A DNA stretch of 64,000 nt from Pristiophorus japonicus (GCF_044704955.1 NC_091999.1:21762001-21826000); one strand, 5' to 3'. Numbered from the stretch's first letter, positions 1,471 to 54,181 are shown. Made by a program: numbers and translations. The notes: generated by a model not told the origin, from the sequence alone.

Positions 1471-1499
1471 TAAGATAGAGAGACAGATGATAGATAGAT

Positions 1500-13257: not shown

Positions 13258-13319
13258 TAATATAAACTGGAGCAGGGTCTAGGGTATTAATAACTGAGAC
13301 AGGCTCTGATGTATTACAA

Positions 13320-14480: not shown

Positions 14481-15023
14481 ATCAACCATATAAACTGAGA
14501 CTCGGTCTTGTGCAGTAAAAACTGCGACAGAGTCTGGTGTAATGAGAGAAACAATAATTGCAGATTTATTAACCGTATGCCAGGTACAGGTGCAGTTTCA
14601 TGTTGGCCATCACTTGCACCAATAATCATACACTCGAGGTGTATAACAGGGCATTCTGTCTGGCGGTGAGGTGATCACTGGTCAAAGAAGCTCAGAGACT
14701 GGTGGTGGTCTGCTCATTATCCTCGGTGTGAATTAATCCCCTTTCCCACTGAACACTGCAAACAGACATGGTCACCTTGGTAACGGAATGGTCAGTGTGA
14801 CATCACTTTCTAAAGCAGAACACGCAAGACAATGTGTTATCAATAAATATTAAAGGTAATAAACGACCTACCATTAGCTGCAGAATAACATTTAAAGGAA
14901 AAAAAGTAATGGTTGAAGCTAATCATTTATCTTTGTTGATAGCACTTGCACGTATTATAAATGATGTGTCTTATACACACACACACATACACAGACACAC
15001 ACACACGCACACATACACACACA

Positions 15024-15622
15024 CATCATAGGCAGTCCCTCGGAATCGAGGAAGACTTGCATTCACTTTAAAAATGAGACCTTAGGTGGCTGAACAGTCC
15101 AATACGAGAACCACAGTTCCTGTCACTGGTGGGACAGAGAGCCGTTGAGGGAAAGGGGCGACGTGGTGTGGGACAGGTTTGCCGCACGTTCTTTCCGCTG
15201 CCTGTGCTTGCTTTCTGCATGCTCTCAGCGATAAGACTCGAGGTGCTCGGCACATTCCCGCATGCACTTCCTCCACATAGGGCAGTCTTTTGTCTTTGGC
15301 CCTGCTGTATGCCTCAGAGACATGGACCATGTCGAGTACAACCCTCAAGCCGCTGGAGAAATACCACCAACGATGTCTCCGCAAGATCCTGAAAATCTCT
15401 TAAGAGGACAGACGCACCAACGTTAGCGTCCTCGACCAGGTCAACATCCCCATCATTGCAGCACTGACCACACTTGATCAGCTCCGCTGGGCAGGCCACA
15501 CTGTTCGCATGCCAGACACTAGACTCCCAAAGCATGCACTCTGCTCGGAACTCACGTCAAACGAGCGAAAGGTGGGCACTGGAAGCGTTACAAGGACACC
15601 CTCAACGCCTCTCTGAAAAGGT
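15024..15622. mobile_element. RTE-clade LINE 3' end with inverted 5' segment, inserted in (CA)n
   Basis: Minus 15024-15300 encodes CPTSDRNCGSRIGLFSHLRSH with an (ATG)-type tail; plus 15300-15622 encodes LLYASETWT...LRWAGH.VRMPD.RLPK. Confidence 0.9.
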
Positions 15623-16185
15623 ACACACACACAGACACATATAGCGAACACTTTGTGTATGCTATTTTCAGTTGTTCGTCTTAACCAAATGAGCGATACA
15701 GTTTTTGAAGACATTAGGACCCTGAGGCCGCCCATCCAGTGGTGCTGTGAGGTCACGGTTCCAGGCTCCTTCTGACATAACCAGTGGGTCACGTGACAGC
15801 TCCAGAGAAAATATTGCAGGAAAAACAATTCTTATCATTAATTAACTGAGAGAAATTGGCACAGCACACCACAAGTGTGAATTAGTAACCTTTAACACAC
15901 AGTGTGCCACTAAGTAGTGCAAAGTGCAGTGCACTATTGCCCACATTCAGACTTGTCCCTCAATACCAGTCCATCTCTGGGAGATTGTTACAAGATTCAC
16001 TCCATCCTTTCAGCACAAATATTAACGACATGGCACCAGATCAATTAGGCATTGCACACAACCTTTGATAGCTGTTAAGGAATCGAAACATATGTTCCAA
16101 CCAAAAAAGTATTGCATCCTCCTACCCACACACATGTATATCTTTATTTATATTAATATCTCTCCAGCGTCTATATATCTTCTGT

Positions 16186-16630
16186 GTTGCTTTGGCATTC
16201 TCGTGTCCTGGCATGCAAACTATGTGGCCTGCCCAGCGGAGCTGATCAAGTGTGGTCAGTTCTTCAATGTTGGGGATGTTGGCCTGGTCGCGGACGTTAC
16301 AAGGACATGCTCAAAGCCTCCCTGATAAGGTGCAACATCCCCACTGACACCTGAGAGTCCCAGGCCAAAAACCGTGCTAAGTGGAGAAAGTGCATCCGGG
16401 AGGGTGCTGAGCTACTGGAGTCTCATCGCGGAGAGCATGCAGAAATCAAGTGCAGGCAGTGGAAAGAGCGCATGGCAAACCATTCCCACCCATCTCTTCC
16501 TTCAATGACTATCTGTCCCACTGTGACAGAGACTGTAATTCCTGTAATTGGACTGTTCAGCCACCTAAGAACTGATTTTAAGAGTGGAAGCAAGTCTTCC
16601 TTGATTCCGAGCAATTGCCTATAATGATGG
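16186..16630. mobile_element. RTE-clade LINE 3' end with inverted 5' segment and 8-bp target-site duplication
   Basis: TSD tcttctgt at 16178-16185 and 16631-16638; empty site in other copies; minus 16186-16295, plus 16295-16630. Confidence 0.9.
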
Positions 16631-17085
16631 TCTTCTGTCTAGCTAACAGACGCATGGTCAAGTGCCGAAATAACTGAGACAGGGTCCGTTGTGCAATAAA
16701 TTGAAATATAGAGCCTGGAGTGGGTGTTTATTCAAAAAATATCTGAGACCGAGACAAAAGTGAGACATACTGAGCATCGTCTCACACAAACAAACATTGT
16801 CCTGTGAAGCGCAATGGATATATGGCCCAGTGTAACATAAAGCGACACAGGGCCTAGTGTAACATCAAAGGATACAGGGCCTCGTGTAATATAAACAGAG
16901 ACAGGTTATAGTGCCATTTAAACAGAGACAGAGCCCAGTGAAATTTAAGCAGACAAGGCGTAGTGTAATATAAACAGAGACATGATGTAGTGAAATTTAA
17001 ACAAAGACAGGGTCTAGAGTAATATAAACATGGACAAGGTATAGTGTATTAAAAACGGAGACACTGCCTCGTGTAATATAAACTT

Positions 17086-18780: not shown

Positions 18781-21700
18781 ATTTGTTGATTAGTAGAGCA
18801 CAGAAGGTGACAATTCAGCCCATAGAGTCTGTGCCGGTTCTTTTGAAGAACAATCCAGTTAGTTTCACTCACCCGCTCTTTCGCTATATCACTGCATTTT
18901 TAACTCCTTCAAGTATTTACACAATTTACTTTTGAAGGCTACTATTCAATCTATATCTACCACCCTATCAGGCAGTACACTCCAAATCCTAACCAGTGGC
19001 CGCGTAAAGAAGTTTGTCCACATATCGCCTTTGGTTCTTTTGTCAATCACCTCACACCTGCAACAGCTTCTATTTATTTACTCTATCTAAACTCTTGATG
19101 ATTTTAATCTGGTCTTTCAAATCTGCTCTTAGACTTCTCTCCTCTAAGGTGGAGAATCGCATCTTTTCCTATCTCTCCACATTAACTGAAGTCCCTCATC
19201 CCTGGTAACATTCTATTAAAGATGCCCTTAACCTTGTCCAATCCAAGGAGAACAATCCCATCTACTCCTGTCTCTCCACATTAATTGAAGTGCTTCATTC
19301 CCGCTGCTATTCCACTGAATTCCCTCTTAAACTTCTCTACTCCAAGGAAAACAACCCCAGCTTCTCCAGTCTTTCCACATAATTTTAATCCCCCATCCCT
19401 GATGCGTTTCCAGTAATTCTCTTCTGCACCCTCTCGAAAGTCTTCACGTCCTTCCTAAAGTGTGGTGCCCAGAATTGGACACAATCCTCCAGCTGGGGCC
19501 GAACTCGTGCATCTAGTCTTTCATCCTTGGTGCCAATCTGGTAAATCTCCCCTCACCCTTCTCTGCTGTAAGAAGAACAGTCCCAGATTCTACAAGATGT
19601 CCGTGTAACGAGAGCTTGCGTCCTACCTTCCAGTACACACAATGTCATCGAGCTCCAGGCAGGAACTGGCCCAACTTCAATAGCGAGAAGGGGCAAGAAA
19701 AAGGAGCAACTGAAAGTCGCGGATGTCTAAAAACAATTTTTCAAACTGTTACCCTTATTTATTTAATTTATAAGCAGAAAAAGTATCCTCACTGCCCCAG
19801 CTAGAACTTCTACCCAAAGCCAGTTCCCCAGCCAACTCCCTCTCCGAAAAGGTCACCATTTTATTTCTTGTCAGTCTTTTTAGGTGGGGAGGGGTTGGGA
19901 GGTTAAATATAAATATTTGCCATCGCTCGCTCTTTTATTTGTTAATATATATGGAAGCCCGGTGAAGGAATTGGGTGCAGAAAATTCCAGGTGAGGAATC
20001 CTCATCGATGGAATCAGAAACACTCAAAAGGGAAAAATAAGAATCTGTTGGGCTGAGGGAGGGATGGAGGGACGGACGAGTGGAACAAGTAGGGGTGGGG
20101 TGATGGATGGGTGGAGGAATGGACGGAGGGAGGGATGGGTGCAGGGAGAGAGTGATTGATGTAGGGAGGGATTGAGGAAGGGGGGAGTGGAGCAAGGGAG
20201 GATTGATGTGAAGAATGGGTTTAGTGTGGACAGAGGCAGGGAGCGGTGGGTCCAGGGAGGGAGCGATTGATGGGAAGGGGGATGGTGGGAAGAAGGGAAG
20301 GAGGGATGAAGGGAGGGAGGGAAGGAGATACGGGTGGATGGAGGAAGGGATGGTAGGAGGGAGTGATGTAATATCTCCCAGTTTACCCGATCAAAACTCT
20401 TCATAATTTTTAGCACCTCAATTAAGTGGCACATAACCTGCTCGGCTCTAAGGAGAACACTCCCAGCTTTTAGCTACTTTGATTGTGCAGCTCACACATT
20501 GTAAAACTCAAGTTCCGTGAGTCCTTTTGCTTCGGGCACTTCCAGATGTACCCTGCGGAATCGCTGACACTTTTATTTCGACCCAGTGGAAATCCCAGTG
20601 TGGGAATGACATCCCAGGCATGATAAGATAACTCGCCCCTGATAATAAATGGAGCGGTGTAAGACTGGGCTCAGGTCTTGAACTTCAGACACGATGAGCT
20701 GAATGGCAACATTTTAAAATACAATCTGTGATATGTTTAAGCCTCGGTTCAGTGGGATCACTTTCGCCTCTGACTCAGAAGCTCACAGATACTAAACCCC
20801 ACTCCAGAGACCTGAGCCCTTAAGCTGTGCTGACACATCCGGTGCCAGTACTGAGGGAATGCTGCATGGTCAGATGTGCCGTCTTTTGGGGCAGGCATTA
20901 AACTGAGGCCCCAGCTTCCCACTCAGCTGGATATAAAGGACTAATGGTACTATCCTAAAGAGCAGAGGAGTTCTCCACGGTTTCCCGCGCAAAAAATTAT
21001 CCCTCAACCAACACCTGAAAAATAGATTATCCGATCATTATTTCATTGGTGTTTGTGGGATCTTGCTGTGCATAAATTGGCTGCCACATTTCCTACATTA
21101 CAACAGTGACCACATTTCCGGAAAAACTCATTGGCTGTAAAGCTGTTTGGGACAACATGAGGTCAGGAAAGACGCTGCAAGGTGTTTCTAAATGTCAACA
21201 TTTGAAAATAGACGTTCCGATTTGTGAAAAGCTCAGATATTACTGTGATTGTCGGGCACTCCTCTGGTCACTGGTTTAACTTATTTAGTTTCAATGGGTT
21301 AAATCTTCCAATAAATGGAGATCCAGTGGAATAGCAGCCTGTTCAGGGATGTTCCACTGATTTCAGCTGCAGAACTTTCAGAACCGAATTATTCATTTTG
21401 CAATTTATTCCCTTTGATATGAAACACATCTGCTCTAATTGAACAAAACTGAAGCCAAAGTCACAGATCGAGATATGTATATATCTGTGTACCAAATGTC
21501 AATATTCTTAAAATAAGCCCTTGTTGTGAGATGAAACGAATCAATAATTGACTCTGTTGATTTGATTTTGCTGCCATGAACACTTCATGGGAATCAGTGA
21601 GGCGTTTATGTAAATAAACACAGAAATAGAAATCCCAGATTAGAGCATTGAGCGACAGAAACACAATAAATGTTTCCCCACCAGCACAGCACAGAAATAA

Positions 21701-23235
21701 AGATAGAGAGAAATGCAAATCTCTCAACAGATTCCAGCAACAATTGTTTTTTTGGTACATTCTCTAAATTATAGGAGAATAAAGTAAAGATGATCCCCAC
21801 GGTCAGAATTGGGAAAGATTCTAGTCACCATATATAGTGACATCACAAATGTGACAGTGGAGATTTCCTGTGCCCTCTCCCTCCCGTATTTCCACTTTAT
21901 GTCTTGTCTCTCAAGAATGGATAATTGGCCTCCCCCCCACAACTAGATGTCAATATCTAACAAACGTTTTCCTTGAGCCCTACTGAAATGCTTCGAACCA
22001 TGTTGATGATAGTGCGCAGAGGGAGATTTAATCCAAAATGTGACATGTGTATGAAATGATCTGGGAGTTTTTGATGGGACAAAGTAGAGAGATCTTTACA
22101 CTGTATCTAACCCGTGCTGTACCGGCGCTGTGAATGTTTGATGGGACGGTGTAGAGGGAGCTTTACTCTGTATCTAACCCGTGCCGTACCTGCCCTGGCA
22201 ATGTTTGATGGAAAGGTGTAGCGTTAGCATTACTCTGGATCTGACACATGCTGTACGCGCCCTGTGAGTTACAGAGTTTAGTACAGTAATAACGGAGACA
22301 GGGTCTAATTGAATATAAACAGAGGCATGGCCTAGTTTTTTAACATGAAAGAATGGGGCTAGTGTAATAAAAACAGTGTCTTTGTCTCGTTTATTATAAG
22401 CAGAGACATGGTTCTGAGTAATAGGAACAAAGGCATGACATATTCCAGTAATATCTGAGACACGGCATAGTACAATATTAATAGCTCTAGTGCAATAATA
22501 ACTGAGATAGGACATAGTGCAGTAATTATTGATACAGGGACAGTGTTTTATTCATGCCTGGCATGTGGGTGTTGATGGCAAGGCCAACATTGAATGCCTA
22601 ACCCGAATTGGACTTGAAAATCAGGTGTTGAACTGCGACCTTGAACCGCTTGCAGTCCGTGTGGTGAAGGTACTTCCACAGTGTTAAGGAGGGGGTTCCA
22701 CGAATTTGACCCAGCAATTATGAAGGAACCGTAATAAATTTCCAAGTCAGAATGGTGTGACTTGGAGGGGTACGTGGAGGTGATGGTGTTCCCATGAGCC
22801 CGCTGCTCTTGTCCTTCTAGGTGGAAGAGGTCGTAGGTTTGGAAAGTGCTGTCGAAGATGTCTTGGCGAGTTGCTGCAATGCATCTTGTAGATAATACTC
22901 ACTGCAGACAAGGTCCGCCGATGGTTGAGGTAGTGAATTTTTAATGGATGGTGCAATATAAACAGGAACAGTGTCTAGTATACTAATAACTGAGACAGGC
23001 TCTGGCGTAATTATACAATCATAGAATGGTCATAGCACATAAAAGTGCCATTGGACCCATATAGCCCGTGCCGCTCTCTGCAAGATTATTTCAGTTCGTC
23101 TATTCCCACGTCCTTTCCCGTAGCCATGTGAATTTTCTTCCTTCAGCTACATATCCAAATCCATTTGTAATGCCATGATTGACTCTGCCTCCACCACCCT
23201 TTCAGACAGTGCATTGCAGTAATAACTGTAACAGG
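18781..23235. repeat. Tandem segmental unit, copy 2 (right half missing)
   Basis: Has exon A (19935-20022), exon B (20496-20638), SINE, block C, 67-bp repeats and LINE tail; lacks exon D and block E. Confidence 0.9.
20738..21185 (+). mobile_element. SacSINE1/DeuSINE-type SINE (unit copy 2)
   Basis: Same sequence and flanks as 10860-11312. Confidence 0.9.
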
Positions 23236-26860: not shown

Positions 26861-28257
26861 TAAGAAAATAAGGACATAACAATTAGGAGCAAGAATAGGC
26901 CATTCGGCCCCTCAAGCCTGCTCCGCCATTGTGGCTGGTCTTCGACCTCAACTCAACATTAACCGAAGTCTCTCATGCCTGATACTAATCTACTACATCT
27001 CCTCTTAACCATTTCTGCTCTAAGGAGAACAGCACCGGCTTCTCCAGTCTCTCCACATATTTGTTATCGCCCATCCCTGATGCGTTTCCAGTAAATCTCT
27101 TCTGCACCCTCTCGAAAGACTTCATGGACGTCCGATAGTGTGGTGCCCAGAATTGGACACAATACTCTAGCTGGGGCTGAACTAGTGTTTCTAGTCATTC
27201 ATCCCTGGTACCAATCTGGTAAATCTCCCGTCAGCCTTCTCTGCTGTAAGGAGAACAGCCCCAGCTTCTCAAAGTCTGTCCGCGTAGTGAGAGCTTGTGT
27301 CCTACCGTCCCACATAAACAATGGCAGCGAGATCGAGGCGGGAACTGGTCCGTCCCCAACAGCGAGATGGGGGTGGGAAAAAGGGCAGCTGAAAGTCGAC
27401 GATGTCTTGTAACAATTTATTCTTTTTATTTAAAAATAGTAAAAATTTCCTGACTGCCCCAACTAGAATTTCTACCCAACACCAGTTTCCAACCAACTCC
27501 CACTACGGAAAGGTCAACATGTTATTTCACGTCACTTTTTTAGGGGAGCATGGAGGGATTAAATGTATAGATTTAGCATCTTTCGCTCTCTCTTATTTGT
27601 TAAAATATATGAAAGCCCGGTGAAGTAATTGGGCACAGAAAATTCCAGCTGAGGAATCCCCATCGATGGAAGCAGAAACACTGCAAAGGGAAAAATACGA
27701 ATCATTTGGGATGGATGGAGGGTGGAAGGAGTGGAGCAAGGGCGGGGTGGAGTGAAGCAGGGTTGTAGTGAGGGACAGCGGGATGGAGGGTTGGGTGTAG
27801 GGAGGGTGAAATTAATGGAGGGAAGAATGAAGGGTGGGAGAGAAGGAGATACTGGTGGAGGGAGGGAGGGATGGTGGGAGGGAGTGATGGAGTATCTCCC
27901 CTTATAGCCGATCAAAACACTTCATCATTTTGAACACCTCTATTAAGTGGCCCATAACCTGCTCGGTTCTAACGAGCACAGTCCCAGCTTCCAGCTGCTC
28001 TGATGATGCAGCTCACACAGTGTAAAACTGAAGTTCGGTGACTCCTTCTGCCTCGGGCACTTCCAGATGTTCCCCGTGGAATCGCTGACATTTTTCTATG
28101 GACCCAATGTAAATCCCAGTGTGGGAATGACATCCCATGCAAGAAAAGAGAACTGGCCCCTGATAATAAATGGAGCGGTGTAAGACTGTGCTCAGGCCCT
28201 GAACTTCAGACACAATGAGTTTAATGGCAGCATTCTAAAATACAAGATGTGATATAT

Positions 28258-28712
28258 TCAAGCCTCGGCTCAGTGGGATCGCTCTCGCCTCTAACTCAGA
28301 AGGTCACAGATAATAAACCCCACTCCAGAAACCTGATCCATAATCTACGCTGACTCGCCCGGTGCCAGTACTCAGGGAGTGCTGCACGGTCAGAGGTGCC
28401 ATCTTTCAGGGCAGACATTAAACTGAAGTCCATCTTCCCACTCAGTTGGCTTTAAAGGACTCATGGCACGATATTAAAGAGCAGAGGAGTTCTCCAGGGT
28501 TTCCAGCGCAAATACTTATCCCTCAACCAACATTTGAAAAATAGATTATCTGATCATTATTTCATTGCTGTTTGCGGGATCTTGCTGCGCACCAATTGAC
28601 AGCCACGTTTCCTACATTACAATAGTGACCGCACTTCCACAGTAAATCATTGGCTGTAAATCACTTTGGGACATCATGAGGCCATGAAAGGCGCTATATC
28701 ATGCAAGGTATT
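28258..28712 (+). mobile_element. SacSINE1/DeuSINE-type SINE (unit copy 3)
   Basis: Same sequence and flanks as other copies. Confidence 0.9.
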
Positions 28713-31700
28713 TCTAAATGTCAACATTTCAAAATACAAGTTGCAATATGTGAACAGCTTAGATATTACTGTGATTGTCGAACACGCCTCTGCTCACTCG
28801 TTAAACTAATTTAATTTTAGTTGGTTAAATCTTCCATTGAATGGAGATCCAGTGGAATACGAACCTGTTCAGAGATGTTCCACTGATTAAGCAGAACTTT
28901 CAGAACTGAATTACAAATTTTAATATTTATTCCCTTTGATATAAATCACATCTGTTGTAATTGAACAAAACTGAAGCCAAGGTGACTGTTCGACATCTTT
29001 CTACTTATGTGTACCCACTGTCAATATGCTTAAAATGAGACATTGTTCTGAGTTGAGACTAATCAATAAGTGACTCTGTTGTTCTGATTTTGCTGCCATG
29101 AACACTTCATGGCAACCAGTGAGGCGTTTATGTAAACAGACACAAACATAGAAGTCCCAGATTAGAGTATTGAGCGACAGAGACACAATAAATGTTTCCC
29201 CACCAATACAGCATCGAAATAAAGATAGAGAGAAATGGAAATGTCTCAACAGATTCCAGTAAAATTGTTTTTCGGTGCATTTTACTAAATTATATTAGAA
29301 TAAAGTAAAGATGAAACCCACGGACAGAATGGGGAAAGATTCCTTCTCGTCAGCATATAGAACAATATCACATGTACCGTCTCCCTCTCCTTTTTCCATT
29401 TTCTGTTCCATCTGTCAAGAATTGTTCGTTGACATTTCCCCACAAATAAATGTCAACAGATAACAAAAGATTTCCCTCAGCCATAAGGATATGCCTCGGA
29501 CCAAATTGATTGGAGTGCACAGAGGAAGCTTTAATCCAAAATGTGAACTGTGCATTAAATGACATGCGAGTATTTGATGGGAAAGTGTAGAGGGATCTTT
29601 ACTCTGTATCTAACCCGTGCTGTAATTGCCCTGAGATTGTTTGATGGGACTTTGTAGGGGGAGCTTGAACTCTGTGTCTAACCAGTGCTGTACCTGCCCT
29701 GGGATTCTTTGATGGGACTTTGTCGGGATAGCTTTACTCTGTATCTAACCAGTGCTGTACCTGCCCTGGGATTGTTTGATGGGACTTTTTAGAGGGAGCA
29801 TTATTCTATGCCTCAACCGTGCTGTACCTGCCCGGGCAGTGTGTGATGGGACAGGAAAGAGGAAGTTTTCTTGTATCTGACACATGCTGTACCTGACCTG
29901 GGAGTTACATGGTCTAGAGCAGTAATAATTGAGACAGCGTCTAGTTTAATATAAACAAGGACATAACCTAATGCAGTGATAACGGTGACAGGGTCTAGTT
30001 TAATATAAACAGAGACATGGTCTCGTGCAGTAATGTGAAAAGATGGGGTTAATGTAATATCAGCAATGTCCTTGTCTAGTTTAATATAAACAGATGCAGG
30101 GTTTTTAGCAATAGGACAAAACGCATGGCATATTCCAGTAATATCCGAGAGAGCGCTGAGTACAATATTAGTAGTTCTATAAAGGGACATTGTTTTATTG
30201 GTCCCTGAAATTTGGGTGTCGCTGGCAAGGCCATCATTGATGGTCTATCCATAATTGGCCTTGAGAAGCAGGTGGTGAGCTGCCACCTTGATCTGCTGCA
30301 GACCGTGTGGTGAAGGTACTTGCACAGTGTTAGGGAGGGGGTTCCACGAATTTGACCCAGCGACTCTGAAGGAACGATAATCAATTTCCAAATCAGGAAG
30401 GTGTGTGATTTGGACGGGTACGTGGAGATGATGGTGTTCTCATGAGCCTGCTGCCCTCGCCCTTCTAGTTGGAAGAGGTCGTAGGTTTGGAAAGAGCTGT
30501 CGAAGATGTCTTGGCGAGCTACTGCAACGCATCTTGTGGATAGTAATCACTGCAGACATGGTGCGCTGGTGGTGGAGGAAGTGAATATTTAACTTGGTAT
30601 GTGGAGTTATATAAACTGGAATAGTGTCTAGTTCAATAACAACTGAGACAGGCTCTGGTGTATTATAAAACCATAGAATGGTTACAGCACAGAAGAGGGT
30701 CTTTCGGTCCATATAGCCCGTACCGTGCTCTGCAAGAGCATTTCAGCTAGTCCACTGCCCCGCCCTTTCGCGAAGCCCTGTGAATTTTCTTACTTCATGT
30801 TCTGATCGAATTCCCTTTGCAATGCCATGATTGAATCTGCCCCTATCACATTTCAGATTCTAAACACTCGCTGCATAAAAATATTTCTGTTTTGTCGCCT
30901 TTGGTTCTTCTGTCAATCACCTTAAATCTGTGTCCTATTTTCTCAACCCTTCCGCCAATTGGGAAAAGTTTTTTGCCAGCTACTCTGTCTAGACCCCTTA
31001 TGATTCTGAACACCTCGATCAAATCTCATGTCACCCTTCTCTGCTCTGAGGAGAAAAACCCCAGCTTCTCCACTCTAACCACATAACTGAAGTACCTTAT
31101 CCCTGGAACCACACGTAAATCTTTTCTGCACCCTCTCTAAAGCCTTCATATCTTTACTAAAGCGCGGTGCCCAGAATTGGAGACAATACTCCATTTGCGG
31201 CCTAATCAGTGTTTTATACAGGTTCATCATAATTTCCTTGCTTTTGTATTCTATGGCTCTATTTATGAAGCCAAGGATGTCGTATGCTTTTTAAAACACT
31301 TTCTCAACCTGCCCATTTAATGATTTGTGCACATATAACCCCAGATCTCTGTGTTCATTGCACCCTTTAGAATTATATCCTTTTGTTTATTTTGCCTCTC
31401 CTCATTCTTCCTTCCAAAATGTATCACTTCACAATTTTCTGCTTTTTATTTGCCACGTGTCCGTCTATTCCACCAGCATGTCTATGTCCTATTGAAGTCT
31501 CCTACAATCCTCCTCACTGTTCACTATACTTCCAAGCTTGAGTCATCTGCAACTTTTGAAATTGTGCCCTTACACCTGAATCTAAGTCATGAATATAAAT
31601 CAAGAAAAGGAGTGTTCCTGGCACCAACTGCTGAGAGCACCACTGTATACCTTCCTCCAGTCCAAAAAAATCACTGCTCTCTGATTCCTGTCACTCAGTC

Positions 31701-32314
31701 AATTTCGTATCCATGCTGCCACTGTCCCTTTTATTCTATCGGCTTCAACTTTGCTGGCCAAGATATTGTCAGGGCACTTTTTCAAACACCTTTTGCAAGT
31801 CACCCACAACAACGATATAAACTGAGACTTGGTCTATTGCAGTAAAAACTGCGACGGTGTCTGGGTGTAATGAGAGAAACAATGAGTCAGCTATTTACAG
31901 ATTTATTAACCTCAAGCCTGGTACAGGTGCAGTTTCATGTTTACCATAATTTGCAATAATCATCACACACTGCAGGTGCATATCAGGGGATTCTGTGTGA
32001 TGGTGAGGTGATCACTGGACAATAACGCGCAGAGACTAGTGGCTGGCTGCTCATTTTCCTCGGTTTAATTTAATCCCCTTTCCCACTGAAAACTGCGGAC
32101 AGACATGGTCACCTTGATAACAGAAAGGTCAGCGTGACATCACTTTCTAAAGGAGAGTATGCAAGACAATGTTGCATCAATAAATGTTAAATGTATTAAA
32201 CGATCTGCAATTAGCTGTTCATTGAAATAAAATGCTGAAAAATAATGGTTGAAGATAATCATTTATCTTTGTGGCATGCAATTGCACATTTTATGATTTG
32301 TACATACAGGCACA

Positions 32315-32332
32315 GACACACATACATTTGCA

Positions 32333-32369
<37 letters not shown>

Positions 32370-32422
32370 ACACACACACACACACACAAACACACACGCA
32401 CACACACATACATACGCACATA
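32315..32422 (+). repeat. (CA)n microsatellite between exon D and block E
   Basis: Direct reading; equivalents at ~14975-15024 plus 15623-15640 and at 43333-43400. Confidence 0.95.
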
Positions 32423-33159
32423 TATAGCAGTCACTTTGTCTGTACTCTTGTCAGTTGATCGTCTCAACCAGAAGAGATTATCTTTCGGTGGACATTAGGA
32501 CCCTGCGGCCACCCATCCGGTGGTGCTGTGAGGTCACGGTTCCAGACTCTGTCTGACACATACTGGTCACGTGAAAGCTCAATAGAAAATACTGCAGGAA
32601 AGACACTCCTTAAAATTAAATAACTGGGGGAAATGAGCACAGTACAACAAAAGTGTGAATTAGTAACCTTTAACACACAGAGTGCCACTAAGTAGTTTAA
32701 AGTGCAGTGAATTGCTCACCTTCAATCCTGTCCCTCAATCCCAGTCCATCTCTGGGAGATTGTTACAAGATTCACCCCATCCTCTCAACTCAAATATTAC
32801 CGTCACAATACCAGATCTAAAGTACTTTGCACACAACTCTTGATAGCTAGTAACAAAATTAAACGTATCTTGCAACGAAAAAAGTATTGCATCCTCCCAC
32901 CCTCACGCATATATATCTTTATTTATATTAACATCAATCCACCGTCTATATAGCTTCTGTCTATCTAACAGACGCATGGTCGAGCGCAGAAGTAACTGAC
33001 AACAGTGTCTGTTGTACAATAAATCGAGATATAGTCCCTGGAGTGGGAGTTTATCCCAAAACTATCTGAGACTGAGGCAAAAGTGAGAAAAATTGAGCCC
33101 CAGTTGACACAGACAGACATTGTCTTGTGAAGTCAATGGATACATGGCCCAGTTTACCA

Positions 33160-33571
33160 TAAAGGCAGACTGGGCCTCGTGTAACATAAAGGGAGACAGG
33201 GTCGACTGCAACCTAAACAGAGACAGGGCGTAGTGTAATATAAAGAGAGACAGGATCCAGTGTAATATAATAAGAGATAGGGTCTAGTGTAATATAAAGA
33301 GAAACAGGGTCTAGTGTAATATAAAGATAGAAAGGGTCTAGTGTAATATAATCAGAGACAGAGCCCAGTGTAATATAAACTGATACAGGGTCTAGTGAAA
33401 TATAAATATAGACAGGGTCTAGTGTAATTTAAACAGAGACAACGTCTAGTGTAATATAAAGATAGACAGGGTCCAGTGCAATATAAAGAGAGACATGGTC
33501 TAGTGCAATATAAACAGAGACAGGGTCTCGAGTAATACAAACAGAGACCGGGCCTAGTGTAATATAAACAC
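33160..33571 (-). repeat. 27-bp minisatellite
   Basis: Tandem acagggtctagtgtaatataaa.agag. Confidence 0.9.
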
Positions 33572-36503
33572 GTTAATTATAGGTTAATTAGTATTTTAAT
33601 GTGATACTTGTGTCTGACTTTTTTTTAGATATGTCACTAATATTAGGGCATATAACCGATACGGCCTCTCTCATTTCGTGTTCAAGTTCGATAATTTTTT
33701 CTCTTTTTTTGCATTTGATGTTCATAAGAGATGTGAATCCTAATTCGCAGAGATGTAGAAAACTGCATCAGAATTATCAAAGCTTTTTTTGATATTGCAG
33801 GATATTCTTCTTTAATAGAAATCCAGAATTCATCAAGAGACATATCTGAATGTTTCATTTTAAGACTGTGGTCTGTAGAAGTAGAAGTCAATTCTTCTTC
33901 TTCTTGCAACGTAAAATCAAAATCTGACGTATTAGTTGGAGAAAATGGAATCATATTCTCTACATACAAAGATCGAAAATATTTTTTGATGCTGTCTTCC
34001 AGTGATGCCAAATGCTCTATCACAATAGGAGCAACCTTTTTAATACTGTGATTTGGTATCAAAGGGAAGGTTTTAAGATTTTTTTTCTGTTGCACTCTTT
34101 TTTCCAGGGAGAATTGTTTTTCTGAAAAACTAATAGCTTGTCTGTCGAGGTGAGAATGTTTTCATTTCGCCCTTGCATACTGGTATTAACGCTGTTTAGA
34201 CAATTAAATACAGCTGCCAAATATGCCAACTTAGCACACCACTTTTCACTCTTCAGGTATTTGCAAATGGTATCATTTCCTTCTTTTTCAAAAAATACTG
34301 ACAATTCTTTTTTAAGTTCAAATACACGACATAAGACTTTTCCCCTTGAAAGCCATCCTACCTCTGTATGCAAAAGTAAACATTCGTGCTGTGCATCCAT
34401 AGCTTTGCAGAGCTGTTTAACAAGCAAGTTTTTAAAGGTCTTGATTTTATATAATTTACAATATTATCAACCTGATCTAACACAGATTTTAATTCGAGCA
34501 GTAATGTCTTTGTAACAAGTGCTTCTCTATGCAAAAAGCATTGGGGGAATATATTTGGATTATGTTTTTTTGCAAGCGTAATGAACCCTTTGACAAATCC
34601 CACCATAGATTGAGCACCGTCAGTGCAGATTCCAACACATGAGTCCCATGAAATTCTCAAGTCTTCTAAATATGAATTCACAGAATCAGATATGTCTTGA
34701 CCTCTAATACTTTTGGGAAGTTCTCTTCAGCACAGAAATTGGTTAACTATCTCGTTTTCATGAATGAAGCGAACAAATGCTAACATTTATCACTAATGTT
34801 GGTGGACACGTCGATTTGCACAGCACAATTCGAGTTTGTAAGTTTATTGGCTACATTTTCTTCAATGTTAGGTGACATTTCATTTATGCTTCTCCGAATT
34901 ATAACGTCAGACAGCGGAATGTTTGCAATTTCTTGTTCCGCTGCATCACCAAGCATTATTTTGGCAATTTTACGACATGTATGCAACATACGTGACTCAG
35001 CTACAGTATGAGACTACATTTTCTGCGCTATTAATTCAGCAATTTCCTAAGATGCAATTTGAAACTTACCTTAACATTTTTTTCAAAATATTTCACTTGT
35101 TTTGATTGCGTTGCCATCAATCTCTGAAAATACATCTGATCTTTTGTTGAAAGATGTGCATGTTTCGTAGTACAATGACGTTTGAATGTCCTGGGAACCA
35201 TTGCACTGTTCTACAGTTTTTTTTGCCGCACAAACACACAGTGGAATGGGGCATTCTTCTTCTCCTGTCCATGAAAAAGTGAACCTCAAATAATCCTCCA
35301 TATATTGACGATGAATTTTGGATTTTTTAGGATTCGGTTTGGCGCCGCTTGTACTGGCGTTGGTTGTAGGCCTACTAGCGCCACTTGTAGTGGCATTGTG
35401 ATTGATATCACCTTGCTCATTGTTACGTTTTCTTATGATGAATATGTCCATTGGGAGGACAACATTTTTCTTCTGAATGATCCAAACTCCGGACAGATAC
35501 GAACTGAGTCTTCCAATTTCCAAACTCCAGAGAGTCCAGACAGAAACGAAACTAGAGTTGAACAGGAAGTTTTGATTTTGACTGTGGTCAAAATATGCCA
35601 AAAGCGAACGCTCAGAAATCAAAGTAACCGCTAGAATGGCGAGGCCAGGTCAAATTGGATGACGCTTACATCAAAGGAGGAGCTAATTGGCGCTATATCA
35701 GGTCAAAGCATCAAAGATGCCGCCAGTCCCGGCCACACATCAAGCTGCAGATCAATGAACAAAAATAACAAAATATAAATAAGAATGTAATTAAATAAGG
35801 TTTGACATTTTCGTATAAAAACTACACATTTTACTGCATATGTGTTAGAGTCATCTTTCATTTCTTTCATCCAATATAATAATTACATTTTAAGCTTTTC
35901 AAATGAACAATTTAATACTATTATTTTGGATTGGGCATGGACATGGCCCAACTGCCCCCCTGGCTAAGCCTTGGTACAGACGCACATACACACACAAGCA
36001 CACGCTTACACACACAGTTTCAGTCGATGGTAGGCACTCGCACTTCTCTATCAGTAATGGGAGGGAGTAAGGTAATGATAGAGGTGGGGTGGGGGGGGGG
36101 GGGGCGGGGTTGTGCGATGTCGAGTACTCAAAGGAAACAAATTTTGCCAAAGGATTTTGTTCTGAGTATGGACATTTAAATTGTTTGTATGTGCTATCTC
36201 TTGTCATCATTACTTGTACAACTCTAGAACATAGTTTTTTTTAATAATAATAGAGATAAATAGATAGTTATTTGTCAATATTGACAATGTTTATGACAGC
36301 AGTGGCGTCATACATATAGGTAGATGACATATGTGTCTGTCTGTTTCTCTCCCTCCCCCTCCCCTTCTGTTTCAGAGTGAAATGGTTTGTGTTTCATTGA
36401 GAAATCAGCTAAAGTCCACCATACTTTTACACAATTTGCCGGCACACTTGTGAAGGGTTCACGGCACACCAATATGCAGCGGAATACCTGTTGAGAACCA
36501 TTG
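33572..36503 (-). mobile_element. hAT (Buster/Charlie group) DNA transposon, one TIR retained
   Basis: Terminal CAATGGTTCTCAAC (reverse complement of 36490-36503) with cggcacac subterminal repeats; unit sequence resumes at atctaaaa (36504). Confidence 0.85.
33596..35451 (-). pseudogene. hAT Buster/Charlie-family transposase pseudogene (ZBED5/SCAND3-related), frameshifted
   Basis: YLRFTF...PLCV (BED finger), VQIDVST, CTDGA, CFLHREAL, LLLHTEVGWLSRGKVL, FWISIKEEYP and terminal QVSH* spread over several frames. Confidence 0.92.
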
Positions 36504-36631: not shown

Positions 36632-38020
36632 CGTGGTTGGAAAAATGTTGGATTCCATTATTAACGAAGAAGTAGCTGGACATTTGGAAAAACAAAATTC
36701 GGTCAGGCAGATGCAGCATGGATTTATGAAGGTGAAGTCATGTTTGACAAATTTGCTGGCGTTCTTTGAGTATGTAGCGAACAGGGTGGATAAAAGGGAA
36801 TCAGTGCGTGTGGTGTATTTGGTCTTCCAGAAGGCATTTGACAAGGTGCCACATAAAAGGGTACTACACAAGATAAAAGTTCACGGGATCGGGGGTAATA
36901 TATTAGCATTGACAGAGGATTGGCTAACTAACAGAGAACAGAGAGTCGGGATAAATGGTTCATTCTCTGTTTGGCAACGAGAAACTATGGGGTGCTGCAG
37001 GGATCAGTGCAGGGACCCCAACTATTTACTATCTCCATTCACAGCTTGGAAAAGGGACTGAGTGTAACGTAGCCAAGTTTGCTGATGATAAAAGGATTGG
37101 AGGAAAAGCAATGTGTGAGGAATATACACACTATCTGCTAAAGGACATAGACAGGTTACGTGAATGGGAAAAAATTTGGCAGATGGAGTATAATGTTGGA
37201 ATATGTGAGGTCATGCACCTTGCAGAAAAAAAAATCAAACAGCATGTTATTATTTAAATGGAGAAAGATGGCAACGTGCCTCCGTACAGCGGGACGTGGG
37301 GGTACTTGTGCATGAAACACAAAAGGATAGTATGCAGGTATAGCAAGTGATCAGGATGGCCAATGGTATCTTGGCTTTTATTGCAAAGGGGATGGAGTAT
37401 AAAAGCGGGGAAGTCTGCTAGAGCTATATAAGGTATTGGTGAGGCCACACCTGGAATACTGCATGCAGTTTTGGTTTCCTTATTTATGAAGGATAAAATT
37501 GCTTTGGAGGCAATTCAGAGAAGGTTCACTCAGTTGATTCCGTGGATGAGGGGGCTGACTTATGAGGAAAATTTGAGTCGGTTGGCCCTCTACTCATTGG
37601 AATTCAGAAGAATGAGAGGTGATCTTATCGAAACGTATAAGATTATGAGGGGGCTTGTCAAGGTGGATGCAGAGAGGATGTTTCCACTGATGGTAGAGAC
37701 TAGAACTAGAGGGTATGATACTAGAATAGTTTTCATCTCATGAAAAACTGAGATGAGCACAAATTTCTTCTCTCAGAGGGTGGTAAATCTGTGGAATTCC
37801 CTTCCTCAGAGAGCTGTGGAAGCTGGGACGTTGAATACATTTAAGACAGAAATAGACAGTTTCTTAAATAATAAGGGGATATGGGTTTATGGAGAGCGGG
37901 TCCGGAAGTGGACCTGAGCCCATGATCAGATCATCCATGATCTTATTGTAGAGCGCAGCAGGCTCGAGGGACCGTATGGCCTACTCCTGCTCCTCATTCT
38001 TATGTTCTTATGTTCTTATA
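36632..38020 (+). mobile_element. CR1 LINE insertion shared by copies 4 and 5
   Basis: VGKML.SII.E.VAGHLEKQ start, (ttcttatg)n tail followed by aatttactaaatctcctc. Confidence 0.95.
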
Positions 38021-39367
38021 ATTTACTAAATCTCCTCGCAAACTTCTCGGCTGTAAGGAGAGCAGCCCGAGATTATCCAGTCCCTCCACATAATTATAAT
38101 CCCCATCCCTGATACATTTCCAGTAAATCTCTTCTGCACCCTAGCGAAAGTCTTCATGTCCTTCCTAAAGTGTGCTGGCCAGAATTGGACACAATACTCC
38201 AGCTGGGGCCGAACTCGTGTTTATAGTCATTCATCCCTGGTACCAATCTGGTAAATCTTCCCTCACACTTCTCTGCTGTAAGGAGAACATCCCCAGCTTC
38301 TCCAAATCTGTCCGTGTAGCGAGAGCTTGCATCCTACCGTCCGGTACACACAATGGCAGCGAGCTCCAGGCGGGCACTGACCCGTCCTCAACAGCGAGAA
38401 AGGGGAGGAAAAATGAGCGGCTGAAGTCGATGATGCGTTAAAAGAATTTCTAAAATGATTATCTGTTTTTTTAATTACATAACGGAAAAATATCCTGACT
38501 GCCCTGTCTAGAATTTCTATCCAGTGCCACTTCCCCAGCCACTCCCTCTCCGGAAATGTTGCCATTTTATTTCTTGTCAGTTTTTTGGGGGGATGGTATT
38601 AAATATAAATATTAGCCATCGCTCTCTCTCTTATTTGTTGATATATATTAAAGCTCGGTGAAGGAATTGGGTGCAGAAAATTCCATCTGAGGAATACTCA
38701 TCGATGGGAGCAGAAAAACTGCAAAGGAAAAAAATAATAATCGGTTGAGCTGAGGGAGGGATGGAGGGGGGGAGAAGTGGAGCAAGGGAGGGGTGGCATG
38801 TTCGAGGGGTGAGAAATGGACGGAAGGAGGGAGGGATGGTTGCAGGGAGGGAGAGTTTGATGGAGGGAGTGATGGAGGGAGGGAGGGAAGGAGAGACAGG
38901 TGGAGGATAGAAGGGATGGAGGGAGGAAGCGATGAAGGGAGGGAGTGAAGTAGAGTCGGGTGGAGTGTGGGAGGGATGGAGGGACGGAGTGATGGAGTAT
39001 ATGTCAATTTACCCGAACAAAATTCTTATTGATTTTGAGCACCTCTATTAAATGGCCCATAACCTGCTCGGCTCCAAGCAGAACAGTCCCAGCTTCCAGC
39101 TACTCTGATAGTGCATCTGACACAGTGTAAAACTACAGTGTAATCGGTGAGTCCTTGTGCTTCAGGCACTTCCAGATGTTCCTTGCGTATTCGCTGACAC
39201 TTTTACATAGATCCAGTGGAAATTCCAGTGTGGGAATGACATCCCAGGCAAGATAGGAGAACTCGTCCCTGATAATAAACGGACCGGAGTAAGACTGGGC
39301 TCAGGCCCTGAACTTCAGACACGATGAGCTGAATGGCAATATTTTAAAATACATGCTGTTATATGGT

Positions 39368-39820
39368 CGAGCCTCGGCTCAGTGGGATCACTGTCACCTT
39401 TGATTCAGAAGTTCAGATACTAAACTCTACTCCAGTGACCTGAGCCCATAATCTATGCCGACACGTCCGGTGCCAGTACTGAGGGAGTGCAGCACGGTCA
39501 GAGGTGCTGTCGTTCAGGACAGACATTAAACTGATTCCTCTTCTTCCCACTCAGGTGGATTTAAAGGTCTCATGGCACTATGTTAAAGTGCAGATGAGTT
39601 CTCCAGGGTTCACAGCGCGAATGTTTATCCCTTAACCAACATCTGAAAAATAGATGATCTGATCATTATTTCATTGCTGTTGGTGGGATCTTGATGTGCA
39701 CCAATTGGCTGCCACACTTCCTACATTACAACAGTGACTAAACTTCCAAAGTAATTCATTGTCTGTAAATCATTTTGGGATATCATTAGATCATGAAAGG
39801 CGCTATATGAATGCAATGTG
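39368..39820 (+). mobile_element. SacSINE1/DeuSINE-type SINE (unit copy 4)
   Basis: Same sequence and flanks as other copies. Confidence 0.9.
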
Positions 39821-42800
39821 TATCTAAATATCAACATTTCAAAATACAAGTTGCAATATGTTAAATGCTCAGATAATCCTGTGATTGTCGGCACTCCTCT
39901 GGTTACTGGTTTAAATTATTTAGTTTCAGTTAGTTAAATCTTCCATTAAATTGAGATGCAGTGGAATAACAGCCTGTTCAGAGATGTTCCACTGATTTCA
40001 GCAACATACCTTTAAGAACTGAATTATTCATTTAAATATTTATTCCCTTTGATATAAATCACATCTGTTGCAATTGAACAAAACTGAAGTTAACGTCATT
40101 GTTCGACATATTTCTACTTCTGTCAATATTCTTAAAATAAGCCATTGTTGTGAGTTGAGCCCAATCAATAAGTGACTATGTTGATCTGATTTTGCTGCCA
40201 TGGACATTTCATGGCCAGCAGTGAGGCGTTTATGTAAATAAACACAGAAATAGAAATCCCAGATTAGAGCATTGAGCAACAGAGACACAATAAAAGTTTC
40301 CCCACCAACAAAACATAGAAATAAAGACAGAGAGAAATGCAAATCTCTCAACAGATTCCAGCAACAATTGTTTTTTGGTACATTTCTCTAAATTATAGGA
40401 GAATAAAGTAAAGATGATACCCACGGACAGAATGGGGAAAGATTGCTTCTCATCAGCATTTACAGCAACATCACAAAGGTGATAGTGGAGATTTGTGTAT
40501 CCTCTGCCTCTCAATTTTCCATTTTCCTCCTATCTCTTAAGAATGGATCATTGACATTCCCCCACAACTAGATGTCAACATCTAACAAAAGATTTCCTTC
40601 AGCCATAAGGATCTGCCTCGGACCAAATTGATTGGAGTGCACAGAGGGGGTTTTAGTCCAAAATGTGACCTGTGCATTAAATGGCATGGGAGTTTTTGAT
40701 GGGACAGTTTAGAGGTATCTTTACTCTGTATCTGACACATGCTGCACCTGCCCTGGCAGTGTGTGATGGGACAGTATAGAGGGAGCATCACTCTGTCTCT
40801 AACCCGTGCTGTTATTGTTCTGTGCAAGTGTGATGGGACAGTATAGTTGGAGCTTTACTCTGTATCTGACACATGCTACATCTGCCCTGGGAGTTATATG
40901 TCTAGAGCAGTAATACCTGACACTGCGTGTAGTGTAATATAAAGAGAGACATATTCTCGTGCAGTAATAACGGTAACAGGGTCTAGTCTAATATAAAAAA
41001 GAGACATGTTCTAATGCAGTAATGTTAAAGGATGGAGCTACTGTAATATAAGCAATGTCCTTGTCTAGTTTAATATAAACAGAGACAGGATCTTTTGTAA
41101 TCGGAACAAATGCAAGGCCTATTCCATTAATATCTGAGACAGGGCCTAGTACAATATTAATAGTTCAAATGCAGTACGAACAGAGGTAGTGGCTAGTACT
41201 GTAATGACTGATACAGGGATATTGTTTATTGGTTCCTGACATGTGGGTGTGGGTGTCGCTGGCAAGGCCAACATTGAATGTATTTTCCTAATTGGCATTG
41301 AGAAGCAGTTGGTGAGCTGCCACCTTGAACCGCTGCAGACCTTGTGGAGAAGGTACTCACACAGTGTTAGGGACGGGGTTTAAGAATTTGGCCGAGTGTC
41401 TATGAAGGAAAGATAATACATTTCAAAGCCAGATTGGTGTGTGATTTGGAGGGGTACGTGGAGATGATGGTGTTCCCATGAGCCTGCTGCCCTTGTCCTT
41501 CTATGTGGAAGAAGTCGTAGATTTGGAAAGTTCTGTCGAAGATGTCTTGGCGAGTTACTGCAATGCATCTTGTGGATAGTAATCACTGCAGACATGGTAC
41601 GCCGGTGGTGAAGGGAGTGAATATTTAACATGGTGTGTTGGGTTATATAAACTGGAACAGTGTCTTGTGTAGTTATAACTGAGGACAGGCTCTGGTGTAT
41701 TATAGAATCATAGAATGGTTGCAGCACAGAAGAGGGCCATTCGGCCTTTATAACCCGTGTCGTTCTCTGCAAGAGAATTTGAACAAGTCCAGTCCTCCGT
41801 CCTTTCCCGTAGCCATGTGAATTTTCTTCCTTCAAGTACCTATCCAATTCCCTTTGGAATGCCATGATTAAATCTTCGCCCACCGCCTTTCAGGCATTGC
41901 ATTTCAGATCATAACCACTCGCTGCATACAAACGTTTTCCTTATGTCGCCTTTGGTTGTGTCAATCACTTTAAATCTGTGTCCTCTGTTCTCGACCCTTC
42001 TGCCAATGGGAAAAGTTCATCTCCAGCTACTCTCTCGAGACCCCTTATGATTCTGAACACCTCATTCAAATCTCACCTCAAACGTCTTTGCTCTAAGGAG
42101 AACAACCCCAGCTTCTCCTGACTAGACCACATAACCGAAGTACCTTATCCCTGGAACCACACGTTAATATTTTCTGCACCCTCTCTAAGGCATTCACATC
42201 CTTCCTAAAGTGCGGTGCCCAGAATTGGACACAATATTCCAGTTGAAGCCTAATCAGTGTTTTTTACAGGTTCTACATAATTTCCTTGCTTTTGTATTCT
42301 ATGCCTCTATTTAGTAAGCACATGCTCCCATATGCTTTTTAAACCAATTTCTCAATCTGCCCTGCCACATTCAATGATTTATCCACATATAGCCTGAGGT
42401 CTCTGTGTTCATCATACCCTTTAGAATTGTACCCTTTGGTTCATTTTGGCTCTCCTCGTTCTTCCTACCAAAATGTATCACTTCAAAATTTTCTGTGTTT
42501 CATTTTCCAGGCATCCGTCTATTCTACCAGCAAGTCTACATCTGTTTGAAATATATAATAACCCTCCTCACTGTTCACTATACTTCCAAGCTTTGAGTCA
42601 TCTGCAAATATTAAAATTGTGCCCTTACACCCAATATAATTCATGAATATATATCAAGAAAAGCAGTGTTCCTCGCACCAACTGCTGCAGAACACCACTG
42701 TATAGCTTCCTCCAGTCCAAAAAAAAACACTGCTCTCTGATTCCTGTCACTCAGTCAATTCCATATCCAGGCTGCCACTGTCCCTGTTATGCTATGGGTT

Positions 42801-44129
42801 TCAACTTTGCTGGCACGGATATTATCAAGGCACTTTATCAAACACCTTTTCTAAGTCCACCACATCAACGATATAAACTGAGCCTGGGTCTAGTGCAGTA
42901 ATGAGAGAAACAATTAGTCAGGTAATTACATATATACTAACCTCATGCCAGGTACAGGTGCAGTTTCATGTTTACCATCACTTGCACCAATCATCATATA
43001 CTTGAGGTGTATATCAGGAGATTCTGTGTGATGGTGAATGATTGTTGGATAATAAAGCGCAGAGACTGGTGGCTGGCTGCTCATTATCCTCGATGTAATT
43101 TAATCCCTTTTCCCACTGAATACAGCGGACAGACATGTTCACCTTGGTAAGGGAATCGTCAGTGTGACATCAGTCTCTAAAGTAGAGCGTGCAAGACAAT
43201 GTGTTATCAATAAATGTTAAAGGTATTAAACGATCGGCAATTAGCTGTTGAATAAAATAAAATGCTGAAAAATAATGGTTGAAGATAATCATTTAACATT
43301 GTGGAATGTTCTTGCACACATTATAATTTGTACATACACACACATACAAACATGTACATAAACACACACACATACACACACACATATACATACACATATA
43401 GAAAATACTTTGTGTGTTCTCTTTTCAGTTGATCGTCTTAGCCAGATGAGAGATTGAACTCCGGTGGATATTGGGAGCCTGCAGCCGCCCATCCGGCGGT
43501 GTTGTGAGATCACGGTTCCAGGCTCGGTCTGACACAATCAGTGGGTCACGTGAAAGCTCAAAAGAAAATACTGCAGGAAAAACAATCCTTAACATTAAAG
43601 AACTGGGAGCAATTGGCACAGGAGAAGACAAGTGTGAATTAGTGACCTTTAACACACAGGGTGCCACTAAGTAGTGTAAAGTGCAGTGAATTGCTCACCT
43701 TCAGTCCTGTCCCTCAATCCCAGTCCATCTCTGGGAGATTGTTACAAGATTCACCCCATCCTCTCAACACAAATATTACCCATACAATACCAGATCAATA
43801 CGACATTACACAAAACTACTGTTAGCTATTAACGAAATTAAACTGATGTTCCAACCAAAAAAAAGTATTGCATCCTCCTATCGACACACATAAATATCTT
43901 TATTTATAGTAATATCTATCCACCGTCTATATAGCTTCTGTCTCTCTAACAGACGCATGGCAAAAATAACTATCTGTTGTACAATAAATAGATATATAGT
44001 CCCTGGAGAGGGAGTTCATCCCAAAACTATCTGAGACCGCGGAGAAAGTGAGACACCCTGAGCCTCAGTTGACACAAACAGACATTGTCTTATGAAGTCA
44101 ATGGATACATGGCCCAGTTTAACATAATT

Positions 44130-44478
44130 GCAGACAGGGTCTAGTGTAACAGAAAGAGAGACAGGATCTAGTGTAATATAAAGAGAGACAGGGTCGAGTG
44201 TAATATAAAGAGAGACAGGGTCTAGTGTAAGATAAAGAGATACAGGGTCTAGTGTATATAAACAGAGACAGGGTCTAGTGTAATATAAGGAGAGACAGGG
44301 TCTAGTGCAAAAGAAACAGAGACACGGTCTCGTGTAATACAAACAGAGACAGGGTCTAGTGTAATATAAACAGAAACAGGGTCTAGTGTAATTTAAATAG
44401 TGACAGCGTCTAGTGTAATATGAACAGAGGCAGCGTCTAGTGTAATTTAAGAGAGACAGTGCCAAGTGTAATGTAAGC
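44130..44478 (-). repeat. 27-bp minisatellite
   Basis: Explains ORF 44016-44480 (YTRPCLCLY / LDPVSLYIT repeats). Confidence 0.9.
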
Positions 44479-54100: not shown

Positions 54101-54181
54101 TGTTGAATAAAATAAAATGCTGAAAAATAATGGTTGGAGCTAATAGTTTATCTTTGTGAAATGCACTTGCACACCTTATGA

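Follow-up and report, generated by a model that had tools for sequence, protein, structure and literature searches.

We analysed a 64-kb window of the 5.9-Gb genome of Pristiophorus japonicus (C23:21762001-21826000) and found that it holds six minus-strand copies, two of them partial, of a cassette of about 6.7 kb, which are 82-86% identical to one another over aligned columns. An inverted fragment of the cassette (1141-1950, plus strand) holds the 27-bp array, block E, the intron and part of block C. A sequence-only reading of the same window had described a minus-strand spliced gene carried by each repeat unit; this "gene" is one copy, copy 3, of the cassette (26952-33570, minus strand), which runs from an array of 27-bp repeats at its high end to a fragment of a CR1 element at its low end. 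The cassette is made up of unique blocks, CR1 and short interspersed nuclear element (SINE)-like fossils, and minisatellites of 27 and 67 bp.

The features of copy 3 given below lie on the minus strand, apart from the two minisatellites, which carry no strand. At its 5' end, the cassette starts with the 27-bp minisatellite array (33167-33570), followed by unique block E (32720-32901), which ends in a GT donor-like site and whose majority sequence has stops in every frame, a 128-nt intron-like block (32592-32719), unique block C (32435-32591; 157 nt, and 153-162 nt elsewhere), a (CA)n tract (32311-32420) and unique block D (31911-32146; 236 nt, with stops in all three frames). Next come a fossil common to nearly all full cassette copies (30713-31811), which we take to be a CR1-type long interspersed nuclear element (LINE) from its reverse transcriptase peptides, and a repeat-like fossil, Sa (30235-30593), presumably SINE- or LINE-tail-like. 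The second part of the core comprises 27- and 67-bp repeats (67-bp minisatellite, 29573-29903), unique block X of about 820 nt (28731-29552), a dispersed-repeat fossil, Sb (28262-28720), which we assume to be SINE-like, unique block B (28017-28159; 143 nt), a CR1 piece, a (GGAG)n tract, unique block A (27419-27680) with its acceptor-like site, TAA and AATAAA, and finally a CpG-rich unique block, t, with the terminal CR1 piece (together 26999-27408). Block X lies outside the exons of the sequence-only reading and has two open frames of about 94 codons in the majority sequence, and the B frame that the majority sequence keeps open is interrupted by a TAG in copy 3. Block t (27279-27408) has a GC content of 59% and an observed-to-expected CpG ratio of 0.97, and its plus strand would read like a putative decayed first exon with an ATG.

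The other copies of the window differ in completeness. Copy 1 (10143-16800, minus strand, as are copies 2 and 4 to 6) is cut at its 3' end, has lost the C acceptor and carries a GC-rich insertion of about 600 nt between C and D (15025-15623) with no Pfam match. Copy 2 (19274-23226) is without E, C and D, and copy 4 (38019-44479) has all eight GT/AG dinucleotides. Copy 5 (49359-55041) has lost the B and A acceptors and has a run of N inside, and copy 6 (59177-64000) runs past the window end to about 66.1 kb, where a partial seventh copy follows. A decayed hAT-like DNA transposon, with a match to the Pfam hAT dimerisation domain that is under the cut-off (E=0.023), lies between copies 3 and 4 (33682-35649). 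No more cassettes are found in the 100 kb that precede the window, nor past 67 kb.

An IgM heavy-chain cluster on the plus strand starts about 4.3 kb beyond the end of the window, with 1.3 kb between it and the final cassette piece, and its leader and heavy-chain variable (VH) exon (L120:4333-4807, plus strand, outside the window) stand head-to-head with the cassette array. The leader, VH, recombination signal sequence, D segment and J segment lie within about 1 kb, and the cluster encodes a V-set and four C1-set domains and has a transmembrane exon. The sequence-only reading could not see this context because the nearest cluster starts just outside the window, and the position in the 5' flank of IgM is the new part of the result. 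The cluster is apparently complete (L120:4333-5352 and L121:1855-9450; window + 4.3 to 19.5 kb), its second D segment seems to abut JH directly, possibly as a germline-joined DJ, and its VH protein is identical in three C23 clusters. Well over 100 IgM C4-like exons are present in the genome, most of them on the 68-Mb C23 (5-67 Mb); many are truncated or have stops, and a stop and a 5' truncation are common to one group of V genes. Further out, C2H2 zinc-finger genes lie on both sides of the window, including two 264-codon C2H2 frames 55-77 kb past its end (L125:4600-5391 and L127:5834-6625).

The cassette is widespread in the genome. A 21-nt motif of block E has 354 genome matches with two or fewer mismatches, compared to one match for the reversed control, indicating at least 354 copies, and initial candidate counts ranged from 259 to 504 for four of the blocks and reached 1255 for D. 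Most of 40 units from at least 10 contigs contain the same blocks in the same order, some of them truncated, and over B, copy 3 is matched at 98-99% identity by six copies elsewhere. The CR1, SINE-like and minisatellite pieces occur in the same order in nearly all full copies and hence were in place before the cassette spread; since then, all blocks have evolved at one rate. The dispersed copies on C9, C11 and C20 were checked as possible intact parents: none of the 20 examined, among the 22 listed, has the GT of the E donor, and past D those displayed are truncated or rearranged. The 30 kb upstream of six of these copies contained zinc-finger motifs and no Ig exon, and the truncated E-D fragments (C9 202-222 Mb, C11 84.8 Mb, C20 77-79.6 Mb; L210-L229) occur at intervals of 0.1-4 Mb in regions of zinc-finger genes. 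On C3, the cassette copy is likewise broken, and the adjacent cluster, too, is an IgM cluster. Near the C3 end, between two cassette copies, a 95-kb array of pure 27-bp repeats (C3:330563300-330658270; L136-L145) lies on the 5' side of an orphan IgM cluster whose VH family is distant.

The association with IgM clusters extends well beyond the window. A VH search gave 117 rows, 97 of which were used after the 19 weakest and one duplicate had been dropped, and the VH and cassette listings give lower bounds for the linkage counts that follow. At least 122 of the 150 listed cassette matches are found in the 150 kb on the 5' side of an opposite-strand VH gene (median distance 48 kb), compared to 7.9% of random C23 points; four lie 3', and 24 have no listed VH gene near them. 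The same arrangement is found at 50 or more of the 67 arrays, at all 34 of the closest VH genes and at 16 or more of the other 63 V genes. In one exception, at 56.6 Mb, the cassette lies 5' of an IgM constant exon.

The splice-like motifs of copy 3 are located where the sequence-only reading placed them. GAAG/GTGAGC lies at 32720 and is followed by the 128-nt intron (32719-32592) ending in tttcctgcag; D spans 32146-31911 (236 nt, from ctttag to GAG/GTTA) and B spans 28159-28017 (143 nt); the acceptor of A, ttccctttgcag, lies at 27680, with a TAA after 28 codons in one frame and AATAAA at 27430 and 27421. The lengths also agree with those described: B is 143 nt in copies 1, 2, 3 and 6, 147 nt in copy 4 and lacks an acceptor base in copy 5, and in the four window copies with D its length is 236, 236, 235 and 236 nt. 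For block C no donor had been named, and the nearest candidate is weak (32435, GTGACT). However, copy 3 is not the sole keeper of every splice site, as all eight GT/AG dinucleotides are also present in copy 4. At a background retention of 0.76-0.78 per site, the probability that at least one of four to six copies keeps all eight sites is 0.38-0.58, so that the intact sites of copy 4 are explained by chance, and a special status of copy 3 is not supported.

Splice signals had also been described on one strand only, which does not hold against shuffled sequence. Splice sites were scored with general vertebrate weight matrices. In the unique blocks, the numbers of strong sites match those of 300 dinucleotide shuffles on both strands, with two acceptors versus 1.4 and one donor versus 1.8 on the gene strand, and no acceptor versus 0.8 and two donors versus 1.7 on the other strand. 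The four proposed acceptors rank 1, 6, 8 and 9 among 158 AG dinucleotides and the donors rank 1 (E), 15 (D), 20 (B) and 34 (C) among 163 GT dinucleotides; the E donor and the A acceptor are strong, the other three acceptors moderate and the other three donors weak. Among 63 non-redundant copies, 33 have GT and 23 have GG at the strong E donor, and GG is found in nearly all copies of one deep lineage.

We examined the substitution rates on a tree of 42 complete units, taken from 66 units chosen by similarity to B or copy 3; to offset this choice, whole arrays were then fetched irrespective of the state of the exons, with every copy included. On the 42-unit tree, 1114 substitutions fall in 759 exon sites and 2743 in 1866 transposon-fossil sites, a ratio of 1.00. 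The exon divergence is thus equal to that of the neighbouring repeat fossils, one of the outcomes that the sequence-only reading had itself set beforehand as evidence against a gene. Outside CpG sites, the substitutions per site are 1.468 for exons, 1.323 for unique introns and 1.470 for fossils, and divergence from the majority sequence is flat along the unit. No codon periodicity was detected in the exon blocks, and dN/dS in six frames ranges from 0.8 to 1.6 for the exon blocks and from 0.8 to 1.4 for the fossils, giving no signal of purifying selection. E, C and D are interrupted by stops in each of the three frames of the majority sequence, and B has one open frame; among 30 copies of B in whole arrays, the best frame is intact in 14 and broken in 16 (seven with stops and nine frameshifted). 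In whole arrays, the exon blocks E, C, D, B and A have 3.3-7.0 insertions and deletions (indels) per 100 nt per 10 copies, compared to 3.6-4.3 in unique introns of at least 90 nt and 1.7-5.0 in fossils, with no surplus of indels of a multiple of three. An apparent constraint on B and A on the 42-unit tree (four and zero indels, respectively) was rejected as a product of the choice of units by the B protein, since it is gone in whole arrays. In these arrays, seven splice dinucleotides are kept in 182 of 234 cases, in agreement with a background of 0.761 at 407 other AG/GT positions (P=0.59). The longest ATG frame of the predicted copy-3 transcript has 69 codons (P=0.24 versus shuffles).

Searches for a homologue outside the family were negative. 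The protein queries were 28-119 residues long, and so a remote homologue or parent is still possible. No Pfam match at threshold was obtained with 13 and 15 stop-free frames, the best PDB match of six profiles has E=0.35, a hidden Markov model search of 1.84 billion representatives with the B profile gave only three short partial matches in repetitive proteins, and word-index searches with the B, X and D profiles gave none. A 25-nt motif of E has no match in the metagenome collection. Rfam has no match at the gathering score in 64 kb, and eight weak ones far under threshold in 18 kb. Folding z-scores range from -1.4 to +1.3 for eight folds, all around the E donor, and show no unusual stability. 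The sequence-only reading had looked to an outside homologue to support a gene, and none was found in the protein and RNA databases. Our search of the genome itself for a parent gene found none; it was saturated by copies of the family, which could mask a distant parent. Several candidate identities were rejected. A host of microRNAs or small nucleolar RNAs lacks Rfam matches at threshold, and its folds are unremarkable. A relic of a ZU5/UPA gene (UNC5, ankyrin or PIDD-like), which a resemblance of motifs had brought up, is not supported: the genome's own ZU5/UPA matches lie elsewhere, and the block profiles reach a best i-E of 0.25 against them. The sole support for a small-GTPase origin is a PDB match to ARL6 (E=0.35), and the other profiles gave PDB matches at E 0.39-0.64 or none. 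Block X was rejected as an exon in view of its lack of a homologue and of a codon signal.

These results lead us to read the cassette as a non-functional, neutral passenger of IgM cluster duplications, to which we assign a probability of roughly 0.78. The description of an amplified, lineage-specific unit thus stands, a pseudogene family is possible as the origin of the unique blocks, and a working gene or long non-coding RNA (lncRNA) family is not supported. We give slightly less than even odds to the idea that the unique blocks descend from exons of a gene already dead before the spread.

Unequal crossing-over and the duplication of entire IgM clusters are the likely means by which the cassette has multiplied. 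On one side the core stops in the 27-bp array, and on the other in CR1 pieces at several breakpoints; some neighbouring copies have flanking LINEs in common, and no cassette-specific terminal inverted repeat was found in the two copies examined. The structure of the core ends, the shared LINEs and the 27-bp array on C3 would fit unequal crossing-over. We compared six clusters in 15 pairs. Their J-C introns form two lineages that are 85-93% identical within and 74-77% between, whereas the cassettes of the same clusters are, by the same measure, 82-92% identical within an IgM lineage and 80-86% between. Cassettes are therefore more alike between lineages than J-C introns are, which suggests exchange of 5' flanks. 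Co-duplication within a lineage plus one later 5'-flank exchange between lineages would be the simplest reading of these identities, with six clusters being too few to orient the exchange. In the order of events that we propose, one ancestral cassette would have resided in the 5' flank of an IgM cluster, and crossing-over between the 27-bp arrays and the CR1 pieces at the ends would have produced arrays of up to about eight units. Cluster duplications may then have carried the arrays to about 50 sites, and ectopic 5'-flank exchange may have moved the cassette between two older IgM lineages. Truncated E-D pieces would have ridden along with duplications of zinc-finger genes elsewhere.

Several observations weigh against a purely neutral passenger. 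A stretch of about 40 nt within block E (32728-32767, minus strand), which can form an imperfect hairpin and is a weak candidate cis-element, changes at 0.38 of the cassette rate (P<0.001, 1000 permutations), more slowly than any other window on the 42-unit tree. The linkage is incomplete in both directions, as 17 of the 67 arrays have no listed VH gene at their 5' side and 47 of the 97 listed V genes have no listed cassette. In the seven-member clade of copy 3, exons show 14 changes in 764 sites compared to 98 in 3354 sites, a ratio of 0.63 (P=0.11). The GC content of C, D and B (47-50%) is higher than that of the unique introns (31-42%), as fits relic exons, and in a ranking of 88, the GC steps at the acceptors of D and C come second and sixth and that at B comes 24th. 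Neutral rates, moreover, do not exclude a function exerted through transcription or spacing alone, and the recombination steps are inferred rather than observed.

The slow stretch is the centre of an alternative in which the cassette is an upstream control module of the IgM clusters, with the 40-nt stretch binding a transcription factor, or divergent transcription of the array opening the VH promoter, while the rest of the unit drifts. The fixed position and orientation of the cassette 5' of VH are consistent with such a role, and in whole arrays the stretch is again the least divergent 40-nt window (0.049 versus a median of 0.109). The upstream octamer is described in PMC2435157 as absent from shark IgH (immunoglobulin heavy-chain) genes, so that other elements must act, and no octamer occurs in the 935 nt before the adjoining IgM leader. 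However, the stretch is barely ahead of windows in the CR1 and SINE fossils in whole arrays (0.054-0.065), the signal is gone with windows of 60 and 100 nt (P=0.49 and 0.16, respectively), and the tree sample and the whole-array sample overlap. At least one change in the core 21-mer is found in 22 of 37 copies, some of them in the hairpin stem, and the stretch folds no better than shuffles. Matches to EBF, EICE, NF-kB and CTCF motif patterns are absent from the cassette, and many IgM genes have no listed array. We consider this alternative unlikely. Its fullest form would be a dedicated upstream IgM module of variable copy number, in which the 40-nt stretch, present up to eight times and exported between lineages, determines how easily a cluster becomes open to V(D)J rearrangement, perhaps by way of a spliced non-coding transcript in the divergent direction; this, too, is improbable. 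If it were true, the module would help in studying how one or a few of the many IgH clusters are activated in a shark B cell in the absence of an octamer promoter, and a regulatory 40-nt stretch would bear on heavy-chain exclusion in sharks, a long-standing puzzle according to PMC2435157.

It appears very unlikely that the units form a living family of spliced genes or lncRNAs, of which copy 3 and its six near-identical sister copies would be the working members. Copy 3 does have all splice sites, the A acceptor and the E donor are the top-scoring sites on the gene strand, AATAAA follows block A, the joined B-A frame is open in part of the copy-3 clade, and the exon rate of that clade is lowered, although not significantly. 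However, exons, indels and splice sites evolve at neutral rates, the exon ratio returns to 1.03 in the enclosing 21-unit clade, no frame of copy 3 exceeds the length expected from shuffles, no homologue was found, and more than a third of the copies have GG at the E donor. The open frame of B in copy 3 is also not the one that is open in the majority sequence. The least likely explanation is a self-moving, non-autonomous transposable element, for example a composite or rolling-circle one: the fairly constant core of about 6.7 kb, the copies on at least eight large contigs and the star-like deep tree would suit it, but the fixed place and orientation beside VH genes weaken it, neighbours share flanking LINEs as tandem duplicates do, the inverted pairs at the cassette ends are minisatellite or LINE ends only, and the sole transposase-like frame nearby, the weak hAT match, lies outside the cassette.

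Several known systems come close to the cassette. Passenger pseudogenes and low-copy repeats occur in duplicated gene clusters. The cassette resembles them in being non-coding or dead sequence, in its co-duplication with a selected multigene family, in its neutral decay and in its hierarchical identities (98-99%, about 90% and 80-86%). Unlike passenger pseudogenes, it has no identified parent, and it is also tandemly expanded up to about eight units per cluster. Macrosatellites are tandem arrays of multi-kb units, and the cassette is similar to them in its head-to-tail units of 7.5-11 kb with repeat-rich spacers; it differs in that units of one array are only 82-86% alike and not homogenised, and in having no conserved open reading frame or RNA. 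Shark IgH miniloci (VH-D-D-JH-Cmu) number 15-200, with a spacing of at least 120 kb in the nurse shark, as stated in PMC2435157. The neighbour of the cassette is such a cluster, with many copies on one chromosome, but the cassette lies outside the coding cluster, with no similarity to it found, and the portion of PMC2435157 that we could draw on describes no conserved upstream repeat array. C23 bears the bulk of the IgM clusters and is in this respect like the chromosome of the elasmobranch antigen-receptor complex (AgRC) in other sharks, for which a section of PMC12227049 reports Ig, T cell receptor (TCR), UrIg2 and PSMB5 genes and stray V exons, and not intergenic cassettes; the same paper links IgH isotypes to TCR alpha/delta. 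Other work gives 37 IgM clusters for the bamboo shark (PMC8692893) and more tandem gene duplication in larger elasmobranch genomes (10.1101/2025.06.08.657570). No title or abstract mentioning an upstream IgM cassette was found in a literature search whose reach did not extend to most subscription papers on nurse shark IgH clones.

A neutral passenger is ordinary biology and is still useful. As a neutral marker on about 50 IgM clusters, the cassette can order cluster duplications free of the selection that distorts V-gene trees, and it points to 5'-flank exchange between old IgM lineages. It also carries a warning for annotation, as convincing GT/AG patterns persist in such units through descent alone. 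Dating by a pedigree rate was rejected: with 7e-10 mutations per generation, the figure in PMC10587355, the mean tip depth of 0.114 substitutions per site corresponds to about 1.6e8 generations, which is not credible. A minority variant of block B, 15 nt longer and joined to a LINE fragment (L248:5441-5580 and L047:3441-3575), is possibly an older form of the block. Frames resembling long terminal repeat retroelements or retroviruses are present in the flanks (L122:3505-8087, L147:694-4072 and L245:7176-9290), one of them with an RVT_1 match.

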